Positions 58,564 to 64,000 of a stretch of DNA of 64,000 nucleotides are shown here, piece by piece. The stretch is from Carcharhinus amblyrhynchos. Lineage: Eukaryota. The notes below the pieces were generated by a model, which saw only the letters and a list, made by a program, of their open reading frames with translations, was not told the origin of the DNA and searched no databases. The stretch's first letter is position 1. Each line of letters begins with the position of its first letter. The stretch covers positions 36,022,001 through 36,086,000 of the forward strand of contig OZ336890.1 in the NCBI GenBank assembly GCA_965287045.1, given 5' to 3'. The position numbers and the translations under genes were made by a program.

Positions 58564-59395
58564 TGACTGATTGTGAGCATTGCTTCAAAACCACAACCGA
58601 TGGGAGTTGTGCTGACATCAAGGAGAAACTTTCCCACATGTCCTGAATTTTGAATCGGAGATAAGGAACACCCACTTGATTGAGAAACCAGAGAACAAAT
58701 ATGATGTAGAGGTGACAAAACTGGAAGAACAATTTTATTTAAAAATTGATACCCCTTCAACTATTACATTCTAAATTGATCAAAGAAGGTAAAATGTTTG
58801 CATGCATTGGATGCATCAAGATTTGATGACCAAAAAATATAGTGTAAAGCTTTGGAGAAAATTAATGATCAGGAATGAAAACATTGTAGGATGGGAATAA
58901 AAACGATAGCCAATAATGCGACACGTAGGAGGAGATGGAAACAGCAAGATTGTAGCAGAAAATTCACTGAAAGCTGCCATCAGTTTCCAGTCCACAATAC
59001 CAGAAAATGGCATCTTTCTAAAGGTTAAGATATTCACTGCACAATCCGATAGTTGTGGATCTGAATCCCTAACGTCTGATTCTCTAATCCGCCGGTTACA
59101 CATTTGATGAGTTTCATTACCCAGCTAGACTGCTTTGTTGAGGGAGGGCAAAATGGCACAGAGCTGTCTTGTCCTTATGGCAGATGTTCCTTCCAAAGAC
59201 ACATATAACACTCAGACTGTCAGAGGCACAGGGAATTTACTGTTCAAGCAGGCTGGAATAAAGGCAACTGGAGATAGAACTGAAAAGAGACTGGTGCAAA
59301 ATACCTTAAATAAAGAGAATGCTTTAGATCAGACAATTCTCTTGCAAAGTTACTGAACTGACCACAGATTATATAATAATCTATAATAATCTGTA

Positions 59396-59690
59396 CTGTG
59401 GCACAGTGGTTAGTACTGCTGTCGATGCCAGGGCCCAGGCTCAATTTTGGCCTTGGCTGACCAAGTGGAGTTTACACATTCTCCCCGTGTCTGCGTGAGT
59501 TTCCTCCTATACTCCAAAGATGTGTGCATTAGGTTGATTGGCCATACTAAGTTGCTCTTTAGTGTCAGGGGAATTAGGAGGGTAAACATGTGGGATTATG
59601 GAGATAGGACTGGATGGGATTGTTGTCAGTGCAGGCTCAAAGGCCCAAATGGCCTCCTTCTGCACTGTAAGTATTCTATTCTATTTTATA
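59396..59690 (+). mobile_element. V-SINE, tail B
   Basis: Head GTGGCACAGTGGTTAGTACTG; tail GGCCTCCTTCTGCACTGTAAGTATTCTAT. Confidence 0.9.
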
Positions 59691-60386
59691 ATTTTCTCCA
59701 ACATCCATTCATTAAGATTTACATGTTATGGATGGTTAAAGGCAAGATGAAACATCATTCTTCTATATTTTTCTTCAACCGTTTTATTCTCACTTTTCCC
59801 ATAATCTTTTGTCCTTTTCCAGGATCTCACATTCCAAAAATAGTTTTTTTTACTTCTCTCAATGGTGGCACTTCTCACATCATGTCTTGTCGGATATGAC
59901 ACATATAACGTTCTGTTAATAGCCAAAAGGCTTGGGGATTGCATGTTATATACTTATTAACACAGGTGAAGCTACTCCTGAAACCTAATAGAAGTTGAGA
60001 TTGTCATTGTTTATACAATAACTTGTGCATACATTTGTAGAAATCTTGCAGTGTAGCTATAATAACAAAGTCCTAAAACATTGTTAGCTGTACTTCCTAA
60101 CTCTGCTAAACAAATTTAAGATACATTAATGCACACAGTTGCTATTAATTATTCTTTTATTGGGTGCTTAAACACCTGTAAAAAGGCAAATGCTCAAATG
60201 TAACCACAATTTCCATCTTACCTCATCACAGCAATGATATGACTATATAAACAGTAAGACTTAGAGCAGAATTTAAGGTTGGGGACAGGTATCTCATCCA
60301 TTGACTGGAAAACTGGTGGGAGTCCCACCACATGAGAATTGAGTGTCTATCAAGCTCTTAACCTTAATGTCAGGCCTTCCCTAGGA

Positions 60387-60619
60387 TTCTCGGCCTTTTG
60401 GCTAATGTCTAGCATCAGATCAAGCCTAAAATAGGGTCCAATTCCTCATCTTGTCAACTTGGATCTTGTTTTTCTCTCTTGAGGGGGCCATCAATTAGAC
60501 TCAATCGGAATTTGTATTTGGTTTTTGGACCAAGCAGGGGATGGATTTAGGTTTGCCCAGTCCATTCTGACCATTGACTTTATAACTTGAAGGATGGAGT
60601 AAAGATTTTTTTTAAAAAA
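60387..60619 (+). pseudogene. U2 snRNA-derived insertion (retrocopy or U2-derived SINE)
   Basis: TTCTCGGCCTTTTGGCTAA equals U2 nt 6-24 (19/19). Colinear similarity continues through stem IIa/IIb, the Sm site (TGGTTTTTGG) and stem III (GCAGGGGATGGA..TTGCCCAGTCCATTC). T/A-rich end. Confidence 0.8.
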
Positions 60620-60949
60620 CCCACAAGGTTGGAATCCCGCCTCTGAGAGTTGGCAGCCAATCAGAGGCTGGGCAGCTCTTCATTGTCCATCAGCACCACC
60701 AGGAGCAGTGGCTGCTGCCGGTAATACACCCAATAGAGGTCTAGGAGTTTTGAGGGACCCAAGCCACAGGTGATTGAGGGCGGAATGGGGGTTTCTGGGA
60801 GGGGATGACTGGCTGGGAGGAGGGCACAAGATCAGAAAAAAAGAACAGGGGTCGGAATTCAGCATCCGCTCCCGCCCACTTCCAGATGTTGGGTAAAGGC
60901 AGTAAAAAATAGACCACCAGCCCTTCTCCCTCCCTGGAATGGGTGAGTT

Positions 60950-61376
60950 GTCTCTTGAGGATAGGCCAGCTATGTTTGCATCCAGTAGAAATGAGAAGAG
61001 TAAGAGGTGGCTTGATCAAAACCTTTAAGATCCTTAGGAGTCTTGACAAGATGGAAAGGATGTTTCCTCTTGACAGAAACTCCAGAGCCAGAGACCATTG
61101 TTTAAAAGTAAAGGGTAGCTCACTTAAGACAGAGATAAGGAGAAATTTATCCTCTCAGAGGATGGAGAATATCTGGAGCTAACTTCCTCAAAAGTCAGTG
61201 GAAGCATAGTCTTCAAATATTTTTAAGGCTGCGCGACATAGATTCTCGATTAACAAGGGGATGAAACACTATCGGGGTAGGCAGGAATATGGTGTTGAAG
61301 TTACAGTAAGATCAGCCAGGAATCAGGCTCAAGGGGCCTAGTGGTCTCTCCTGCTCCTAATCTGTGTGTTTGTACG
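60950..61376 (+). mobile_element. CR1 LINE 3' end
   Basis: ORF 60943-61182 EMRRVRGGLIKTFKILR.LD..SRARDHCLKVKG..EIRRN.SSQR..NIWS. Confidence 0.9.
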
Positions 61377-62019
61377 TAAGTCTGCAAGAAAACTCAACAG
61401 GGTTTCAGGTTCCTCTTGTGAAGACCTCAACTGCCAGTCATTGGTTGAGTACCAATGGTGGCAGAATGAGGCCCTTGAGTGGGCATTAATGAACTGCCCA
61501 TTTAAGGGCCTCAATTAGCATCTGGGCAGGAAATCTATCCATGAACCTTCCTGGCGTGGTCCTAACTAGACCACATTGCAACCCTCCCTCCCCCACCCCG
61601 ATTAAACGCCCCTTGCCTCCAAAACTGCCACCGGGAGGGGGTATTAAATTTTGCTCATAGCCAGGATGTGCCACAGTGGATACCTCTTGCTATTATAATC
61701 AAAATTTATGCCTGTGAGCATAAATATTTCCAAGGTAAATAGTCATTTAGTAATAAAGAATGAGAGTAATGCTGGAAAAAAAGGCATTCATCATGCACTC
61801 ATCAGGACAGACAAGATACCTGTGCGACAGACAGTAGTAGAGAACTCATTGGATGATTTCTCAAATCTGCCAATAGGTTGAGAAAATCTGTAAATATGTT
61901 CTTTAGTAGTCTGATAAGTCCTCGGAGGTGAAAGTCCCTTCACCGGAATTCCTTTATTTACAAGACCCAACAATACGATAGAGGGTGCAGCCTACATCAG
62001 AAGTACAAAGGAACGGACT

Positions 62020-64000
62020 CATAAGAACATAAGAAATAGGAGCAGGAGTAGGCCATCTAGCCCTTCGAGCCTGCCCCGCCATTCAATAAGATCATGGCTG
62101 ATCTGTCGTGGCTCAGTTCCGCATTCCCGCCCTCTCCCCATAACCTTTAATCCCCTCTCTTATCAAAAACCCATCAACCCGCGTCTTAAAAATATTTAGC
62201 GAGGTAGCCTCCACCACTTCAACGGGCAGAGAATTCCAGAGATTCACCACCGTTTGGGTGAAGAAGTTCCTCCTCAATTCCGTTCTAAACCACCCCCCCT
62301 TTATCTTGAGGCTGTGCCCCCAGTCCTATTATCCTTTCTGAGCGGGAAGAGTCTCTCCACCTCTATCCTATCCATCCCATTCATCATCTTATACGTCTCA
62401 ATGAGATCTCCCCTCATTCTTCTAAACTCTAACGAGTACAAGCCTAGTTTATTCAGCCTCTCCTCATAGCTCAACCCCCTCAACTCCGGTATCAGCCTAG
62501 TAAACCTCCTCTGCACTCCCTCCAAGGCCAAAATATCCTTGCGTAAGTACGGTGCCCAAAACTGCACACAGTACTCCAGTTGCGGCCTCACCAATGCCCT
62601 ATACAGCCGCAGCAAGACCTCCCTACTTTTATATTCAATCCCCCTCGCTATGAAGGCCAGCATCCCATTCGCCTTCCTGATCACCTGCTGCACCTGCAAG
62701 CTGGGTTTTTGCGACTCATGCACAAGGACCCCGAGGTCCCTCTGCACCGTCGCCTGCTGCAGTTTTTCGCCACTTAAGTAATATTCCTTCCTACCATTAT
62801 TCCTACCAAAGTGGACCACCTCGCACTTGCCAACATTAAATTCCATTTGCCATTTCCTGGCCCATTCGCCCAGCCTATCTAGATCCTTCTGTAGACTCTC
62901 CACACCCTCCGCACAATTTGCCTTTCCTCCAATCTTGGTATCATCAGCAAATTTCGACACCATACACTCGGTTCCCTCCTCCAGATCATCTATATAAATG
63001 GTAAATAGCTGAGGCCCCAGCACCGACCCCTGGGGCACTCCACTAGTCACCAACCGCCAATCCGAATAGCACCCATTGACCCCCACTCTCTGCCTCCTAT
63101 TTGACAACCAATCCTCTATCCACGCTAACATCCTACCCCCAACTCCATGTCCCCTGACCTTCTGCAATAACCTCTTGTGAGGTACCTTGTCAAACGCCTT
63201 CTGAAAATCCAGAAAGACCACATCCACCGGCTCTCCTCTATCCACCACCCTAGACACATCCTCATAGAACTCCAGTAAATTTGTCAGACATGACTTCCCT
63301 TTAACGAAACCGTGCTGCGTCTGCTCTATCAAGCAATTCCTCTCAAAATGCCTCGCTATTTCCTCCTTGATGATGGATTCTAACATTTTACTTACAACAG
63401 ACGTTAAACTAACCGGCCTATAATTCCCTGCCTTTTGCCTGGCACCCTTCTTAAACAACAGTGTAACATTAGCCGTTTTCCAATCTTCCGGCACTTACCC
63501 GGAATCCAGCGACGTCTGGAAAATAACCACCAAGGCATCCACTATCACCTCCGCCATTTCTTTCAGAACCCTCGGATGCATTCCATCCGGTCCTGGCGAC
63601 TTGTCCACAATCAGTCCCTCCAGTCTGTCGAGCACCTCCTCTCTAGTAACATTAATGTCATTGAGACCCTCCAGTCCTACCACCTTTCCATCTCTAACAC
63701 CTGGCAAATTATTCACGTCCTCCTCCGTGAAGACAGAAACAAAAAAGTTATTCAGGACCTCAGCCATATCCCCATCCCCTACCACTAAGTCCCCCTTCTA
63801 AGGGACCAATGTTCACCCTAGCCAGCCTCTTCCTTTTTATATATTTATAAAAACTCTTGCTATCCTTTTTTATATTAAGCGCTAGCCCAGCTTCATAGTT
63901 TCTCCTACCCTTCTTTATCATCTTCTTTGTCAATCTTTGTTGACATTTAAACCTCTCCCAATCCTCTTCTCGCCCACTACTCTTTGCTACTCTAAACGCC
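62020..64000 (-). mobile_element. Young CR1 LINE (3' about 2 kb; continues beyond the window)
   Basis: (TTCTTATG)n tail at about 62020-62035, 3' UTR, and ORF2 RT region with few lesions. Confidence 0.97.
62301..63494 (-). CDS. CR1 ORF2 reverse transcriptase domain (open segment of a disrupted ORF)
   Basis: PEDWKTANV..NYRPVSLTS..QHGF..KSCLTNL..LDFQKAFDKV..GVPQGSVLGP.LF..FADDTK. Preceded in frame by a single TAA (63495-97); frameshift near 62320. Confidence 0.9.
   Translation of the reverse strand: MPEDWKTANVTLLFKKGARQKAGNYRPVSLTSVVSKMLESIIKEEIARHFERNCLIEQTQHGFVKGKSCLTNLLEFYEDVSRVVDRGEPVDVVFLDFQKAFDKVPHKRLLQKVRGHGVGGRMLAWIEDWLSNRRQRVGVNGCYSDWRLVTSGVPQGSVLGPQLFTIYIDDLEEGTECMVSKFADDTKIGGKANCAEGVESLQKDLDRLGEWARKWQMEFNVGKCEVVHFGRNNGRKEYYLSGEKLQQATVQRDLGVLVHESQKPSLQVQQVIRKANGMLAFIARGIEYKSREVLLRLYRALVRPQLEYCVQFWAPYLRKDILALEGVQRRFTRLIPELRGLSYEERLNKLGLYSLEFRRMRGDLIETYKMMNGMDRIEVERLFPLRKDNRTGGTASR

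Follow-up and report, generated by a model that had tools for sequence, protein, structure and literature searches.

A dispersed family of U2-derived, SINEU-type retroposons in the shark Carcharhinus amblyrhynchos, seen from an old copy inside a DNA-transposon-like repeat

The 64,000-nucleotide stretch analysed here (the window: Carcharhinus amblyrhynchos, assembly GCA_965287045.1, contig OZ336890.1, positions 36,022,001 to 36,086,000 of the forward strand) carries at 60387..60619, on the plus strand, one copy of a U2-derived retroposon of the type here called subfamily A, lacking the first 5 nt of U2. Measured against the genome's own U2 gene (array on C45), the copy comprises, all on the plus strand: a U2 5′ head (60387..60416), in which U2 6-24 is exact at 60387-60405 and the remainder is decayed to about U2 33; a hairpin module including a first insertion (60417..60466), which sits in place of the branch-pairing motif and is decayed in this copy; a block from U2 stem IIb (60473..60491; U2 66-95, matched by 0/300 shuffles); a second shared insertion of about 18 nt (60492..60509), for which pairing with the segment preceding the Sm site is predicted in the family majority sequence; an altered Sm-site-like motif (60520..60528), in which the A of the U2 site is replaced by G; a block from U2 stem III (60532..60568; U2 96-150, 0/300 shuffles); the hexamer AGTAAA, a candidate polyadenylation signal (60598..60603; AATAAA before the tail in sister subfamilies); and, as read from the sequence, a T/A tract with a terminal A tail (60604..60619). 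The copy is 87.6% identical to the family majority and folds no better than chance (z = -0.3); it is an old, inert relic.

The 19-nt identity to U2 6-24 at 60387, pointed out in the preliminary description of this DNA, is indeed the longest exact match to the U2 gene. The derivation from U2 does not end with the head: the window copy minus its head aligns to U2 36-191 with a score of 70 (shuffled sequences 34.6 ± 5.5, 0/1000 as high), and the family majority scores 92 against U2 (shuffled 34.4, 0/500). The same description had listed colinear U2 blocks; those of stems IIb and III hold, whereas the proposed stem IIa block (U2 36-70) is insignificant when aligned alone (117/300 shuffles as high). 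The stem IIa fold is lost, and in the family majority the ex-stem-IIa sequence is predicted to pair instead with the first insertion, which combines a repeated U2 25-31 word with an arm complementary to this region. Two extra segments were likewise confirmed (24 and 18 nt, majority versus U2), the first of them lying at the branch-pairing motif and not after it as had been described. As to the non-U2 end said to replace stem IV, the local alignment reaches about U2 169, U2 151-191 alone is insignificant (232/300), and U2 derivation appears to extend to about nt 169; the last ~30 nt of the element may or may not stem from U2. An Rfam search gave no U2 match for the window copy at E ≤ 1, and sister copies do match (L006 reaches 48.6 bits, with a cut-off of 46 bits).

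The copy interrupts a non-autonomous, DNA-transposon-like repeat (60264..61656, no strand assigned) delimited by 13-bp terminal inverted repeats (TIRs) with one mismatch and flanked by TTA/ATA, in agreement with the insertion inside a DNA transposon described before. It may be a PIF/Harbinger MITE, a class marked by short TIRs, a 3-bp TWA duplication and a link to a Harbinger transposase. Paralogs of this host were retrieved with the right flank alone, the query of element plus flanks being swamped by the SINE, and the retroposon was absent from all the 24 examined. The empty paralogous sites read straight across the insertion point, bearing out the earlier remark that no clear target site duplication (TSD) is visible: 3-5 host bases are absent at the junction (target truncation), where there is also microhomology, the host's left part ending in the same 3 nt with which the head begins. 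The host repeat surrounds 1 of 95 family copies, that of the window; it is therefore an incidental landing place. Several other features accompany it in the window: a palindromic hairpin of the host repeat at 61460-61520, with a weak mir-2001 match (E 0.079) that is probably the symmetry of the MITE itself; a common dispersed repeat at 59395-59679, present in many flanks and presumably resembling a tRNA-derived shark SINE; and, on the minus strand at 62020-63800, a young CR1-like LINE end with a 397-aa open reverse transcriptase stretch at 62301-63494. The proteins named as nearest to a CR1-type reverse transcriptase of this genome suit a cartilaginous fish: identity is 58-60% to those of sharks and chimaera and 37-50% to those of bird, turtle and frog.

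The element is not single-copy, and the dispersed family with common insertions, common 3′ end and TSDs that had been anticipated does exist. The genome search (2.92 Gb) returned 2,254 first-look candidates; the 40 matches scored comprise the window copy itself and others of 80-86% identity on many chromosomes. Alignment of 30 loci showed homology ending at the borders of the element with unrelated flanks on either side, and both insertions and the 3′ end were common to the sampled copies. A family-specific 30-mer had 71 exact matches genome-wide (control, 0) and a 14-nt core 5,528 (control, 2). An evenly spaced sample (40 × 10 kb, 400 kb) contained four copies (reversed control, 0), from which about 29,000 copies are extrapolated for the whole superfamily, with a Poisson range of roughly 8,000-75,000. 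Subfamily A was analysed on 95 copies (the A-search set, 100 loci minus 5 duplicates), whose identity to the majority has a median of 89% and a maximum of 94%, and in 11 of which the alignment starts at U2 nt 1. The element is non-coding and shorter than 500 bp (about 223 nt plus the A/T tail). Pieces with identical boundaries were present in putative RNA contigs of all four organisms examined, two of which share one 3′ flank, a record of presence only. At C4:71.53-71.67 Mb (L002-L004), three near-identical copies with common flanks, ~69 kb apart, represent a segmental triplication.

Movement by retroposition, as originally proposed, is borne out by the TSDs: among the 66 A-search copies with intact 3′ ends, eight have a TSD score of at least 10 (0.17 expected from permuted pairs), and exact TSDs of 9-24 bp flank 13 of 30 young copies of the sister subfamily D (0.35 expected). 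AGTAAA stands before the tail in 36 of the same 66 copies and AATAAA in five, suggesting that A(A/G)TAAA serves as a polyadenylation signal; no LINE-derived 3′ tail was evident on the element. The sole upstream sequence common at the junctions of the A-search copies was a U1-U4 head. The junction flanks had nothing in common except heads and tandem copies, and a host preference of the Mariner-N4 kind was absent. A classical polymerase III SINE (SINE1/2/3) was considered and rejected: the head is U2, there are internal runs of 4-5 T, and Rfam gave no tRNA, 7SL or 5S match.

The first 30 core matches, sorted by eye, included eight copies of type A/B (that of the window), 18 of type D and four with heads of U1/U4 type. 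Type C (413 candidates, 30 aligned) joins U1 1-55 and a piece of U4 to the same body, from which stem III is deleted; its U1 and U4 parts were each matched by 0/1000 shuffles, and the U4 3′ part by 4/1000. Type D combines a U2 1-40 head with a doubled hairpin. The middle part of D is insignificant when compared with U4 directly (553/1000) and is tied to U4 only via subfamily C (0/1000). Over 294 nt, 13 of the best 30 D matches equal the majority, 16 differ by one base and one by two; these copies were chosen for their closeness to one young copy and are not representative of all D. Subfamily D is very young. Among 72 SINE-linked U2 heads, mostly copies of one master and thus not independent, 51 end at nt 40, 17 at nt 37-39 and four at nt 45-52; in L114, L211 and L212 the U2 head extends to 49-52, and L276 carries U2 17-37 ahead of a full D copy.

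Several individual D loci deserve mention. About 22 nt just 5′ of the D copy in L200 presumably resemble the U5 snRNA 5′ end, for which Rfam gave no confirmation. Tandem D copies occur at L212/L213, L285, L272, L291 and L293, some with a duplicated target site between them, as in SINEU-3. At L262 two oppositely oriented D copies are separated by ~100 bp; the younger of them has a 20-bp TSD, and its 5′ junction carries 12 additional bases. In a U4 gene cluster (C3:40,378,600-40,384,300, L185), a locally triplicated unit places a D-type element head-to-head with each U4 start, ~300 bp away, and one U4 copy of the cluster is split by the LINE described below. These chimeras were considered as masters and rejected: there are three of them, head-to-head in a duplicated unit, with no promoter-like motif recognisable by eye, and they were kept as old insertions.

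The set of features of a functional U2 (branch-pairing motif, stem IIa, Sm site and upstream snRNA promoter) was not found in the copies examined. None of the 95 copies has the branch-pairing motif within its first 70 aligned nt, and the A of the Sm site is replaced by G in 36 of the 51 copies scored. The first insertion and the ex-stem-IIa region form instead a long predicted hairpin (fold z = -4.2 for the family majority and -2.3 for one well-kept copy), a module found again in the other subfamilies. Across six module types, 4/16 pairs of this hairpin are changed on both sides and the covariation is 0.287 (2/500 shuffles as high); the count of changed pairs alone lies within the shuffles (151/500), and the rows compared are only six and related. 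RNAalifold on 28 A copies found almost no covariation, as expected for neutral decay. Since the hairpin covaries between subfamilies, on few rows, these data point to selection that may have acted on the masters' RNA. For subfamily D, the fold prediction pairs the stretch following the U2 head with the branch motif.

These observations bear on what the master was. The preliminary description had proposed descent from a modified master element, either a U2-derived SINE or a variant snRNA, and it is the first of these that is supported. A functional variant snRNA or structured non-coding RNA gene, with the dispersed copies as its retropseudogenes, would account for the strong predicted structure, for the covariation between subfamilies and for the retention of the stem I, IIb and III blocks; it is nevertheless highly improbable, because the branch motif is lost, the Sm site is altered in most copies and no copy examined lies behind U2, U1 or U4 upstream sequence, and masters repeatedly gave way to rearranged chimeras in which modules are duplicated or deletions occur, with genuine U1, U2 and U4 genes present separately in the genome. 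Reading the window copy as a lone decayed U2 pseudogene, or as a piece of the DNA transposon spread along with it, would fit its position inside a repeat and its lack of both a TSD and an Rfam match, and has a negligible probability: there are thousands of dispersed copies with common rearrangements, homology does not extend past the element's ends, the 24 host paralogs examined lack the element and 94/95 copies lack the host. The window element thus almost certainly belongs to a dispersed family of U2-derived, SINEU-type retroposons.

The likely partner of the family emerged from L283, where a young D copy and a LINE 3′ fragment are arranged as TSD-SINE-TSD-LINE-TSD, with one 14-bp repeat present three times; subfamily D shares duplicated target sites with the LINE. 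Among 29 other copies of this LINE end, six abut a D element (five are directly followed and one directly preceded by it), two run into U1 from nt 35 onward and one (L301) has an A copy ~30 nt away; one further LINE copy sits within a U4 gene, where U4 39-55 is duplicated. The LINE search gave 2,226 candidates, and most of the copies examined lie outside snRNA sequences. In the U2 array, one gene is split by this LINE (U2 1-40, 1.3 kb of LINE, an A tail and U2 38-191; break at nt 37|38) and retains an upstream region identical to that of an intact U2 gene at 299/300 positions; a second split U2 gene lies on C1098. The domains recognised in the LINE were Exo_endo_phos (APE endonuclease), an RVT_1 fragment just under the cut-off and zf-RVT, and a homolog search with its protein returned no named Tx1/Keno protein. 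Keno and Utopia share a 3′ flank consisting of U2 from nt 39 (PMC4640811, in the part available). The insertion site of the shark LINE is the U2 site common to these two elements, and the LINE combines the APE endonuclease and the U2 flank of Keno; its domains and U2 site suggest a Keno/Tx1-type clade. What such a Keno-type insertion leaves upstream in a real U2 gene is U2 1-40, which matches the D head in length.

A LINE tail just upstream was found in 0/95 A-search copies and in 0/30 of the youngest D copies, and subfamily A is older than the LINE set (median identity of 89% versus 92-94% to the query), so the window subfamily is linked to the LINE by kinship with D; on this kinship, Tx1/Keno mobilisation of subfamily A is probable. 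Two further U2-related arrays were observed. At C45:1,790,000-1,850,000 (L331-L335, L348), each unit of a ~4-kb tandem repeat holds an internally deleted LINE end and ~20 nt of U2 from nt 38; the array starts beside a U2 upstream region and U2 1-26, and amounts to the amplification, beside the live array, of a Keno-disrupted U2 unit. On C98:20,194-75,074 (L042-L045, L357) and C334 (L041) there is a tandem array of a U2 variant, ~88% identical to the main U2 (Rfam 177-181 bits; period ~407 bp, spacer ~215 bp), with an intact branch motif, which may represent either a second, compact class of U2 genes or foreign DNA included in the assembly.

Taken as a whole, we place at roughly 0.7 the probability that the window element is an old decayed SINEU-type copy, likely mobilised by a Keno/Tx1-type LINE and likely derived from RNA of a source copy behind an snRNA promoter. 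According to this model, an element would land in a U2 (or U1/U4) gene by means of the enzymes of a Keno/Tx1-type LINE, gaining in this way an external polymerase II promoter and the first 35-55 nt of the snRNA as a new head; polymerase II would transcribe this source copy from +1, and the transcript would be polyadenylated at its own A(A/G)TAAA, would fold into hairpins removing or hiding splicing-active motifs, and would be reverse-transcribed at new sites by the LINE's enzymes. The same SINEU-type family could have been mobilised by Tx1-type enzymes with heads acquired by template switching onto free snRNAs and with transcription by read-through from unrelated host promoters. Template switching is the published proposal for the crocodilian SINEU (PMC4494074, in the part available). 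The capture of a promoter fits the data because full-length copies start at +1 and the heads end at nt 37-52, and template switching onto U2 RNA predicts similar heads, ending at nt 33-52. The one-off 5′ additions at L276, L114, L211 and L212 favour switching, as does the failure to find a source copy: no SINE lies in a promoter-bearing snRNA gene in the U2-array DNA or in ~390 kb around U2 genes and LINE copies, the U2, U1 and U4 upstream sequences match only snRNA gene loci in the 1.63 Mb examined, and the pattern of an A tail followed by U2 from nt 29 onward had 0 matches genome-wide, a search that addresses the U2 28|29 junction and not the Keno site. Against switching, the full-length copies start at the snRNA +1 without common upstream extensions, the D head has the length of the junction that the LINE makes in a real U2 gene, and the U1 and U4 modules adjoin the positions at which the LINE is inserted in sequences of U1 (nt 35) and U4 (nt 39). 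We consider template switching with read-through unlikely and promoter capture about as probable as not.

The available part of Kojima 2015 (PMC4494074) describes SINEU from crocodilians and none outside them, with only U1 and U2 heads, and leaves open how the promoter-less SINEU are transcribed. The family described here has the SINEU features of a U1/U2-derived head, a short non-coding body with poly(A), shared rearrangements, and TSDs or target truncation; it adds a new lineage to the SINEU-type retroposons, and brings a U4 module and a transcription route open to testing. Compared with SINEU-3 in the same source, the likenesses are a short element made nearly entirely of rearranged U2, a shared internal change, a poly(A) tail, internal T runs, tandem copies around a TSD and, probably, Tx1-type mobilisation. 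SINEU-3 differs in having a ~50-bp internal deletion and in targeting a Mariner element (90% of copies), a preference for Mariner-N4-like hosts that is described there as lineage-specific and weak for SINEU-1 and SINEU-2, whereas subfamily A has two insertions, a new hairpin, no common flank and another host lineage; the two are set apart here by description. With SINEU-1 and SINEU-2, as reported in that text, the shark elements share recurrent U1/U2 heads, partial duplications, a U1+U2 composite, a recently active subfamily and the occurrence of both TSDs and target truncation; unlike them, they include a U4 module (0/1000 shuffles) and a partner LINE inside a real U2 gene. The partner LINE resembles Keno (Tx1 clade) and Utopia, as given in the available parts of PMC4640811 and PMC4494074, in its U2 position and APE endonuclease, and differs from them in being only loosely site-specific here. 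Ordinary U2 retropseudogenes likewise have the U2 5′ end, a dispersed distribution and an A tail, but they copy the U2 gene (93-94% in full-length examples in this genome), whereas the family copies a rearranged master. No snRNA-derived SINE of cartilaginous fish was found in the literature, a search from which Repbase, Dfam and most subscription journals were excluded, so a database entry may exist; the available parts of PMC5786205, PMC5381603, PMC4758252, PMC5753468 and PMC5499810 report no shark case.

These results provide a second vertebrate lineage with SINEU-type elements, present in roughly tens of thousands of copies. Subfamily D is young enough to assay (13/30 of the copies compared are identical), its young copies would serve as insertion-polymorphism markers, and copies above the Rfam cut-off risk being mis-annotated as U2 genes. 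The LINE insertion in a U2 gene that bears its promoter gives precisely the length of the head, making the question of transcription directly testable. We tentatively propose, at slightly less than even odds, that an old superfamily of polymerase II SINEs, active to this day, exists in cartilaginous fishes and renews itself by being carried with a Keno-type LINE into U2, U1 and U4 genes, each arrival of a SINE capturing the promoter and a new head, with hairpins that hide the splicing-active motifs selected afterwards. If true, this would answer how SINEU are transcribed, and in jawed vertebrates RNA parasites would repeatedly set out from spliceosomal RNA genes.
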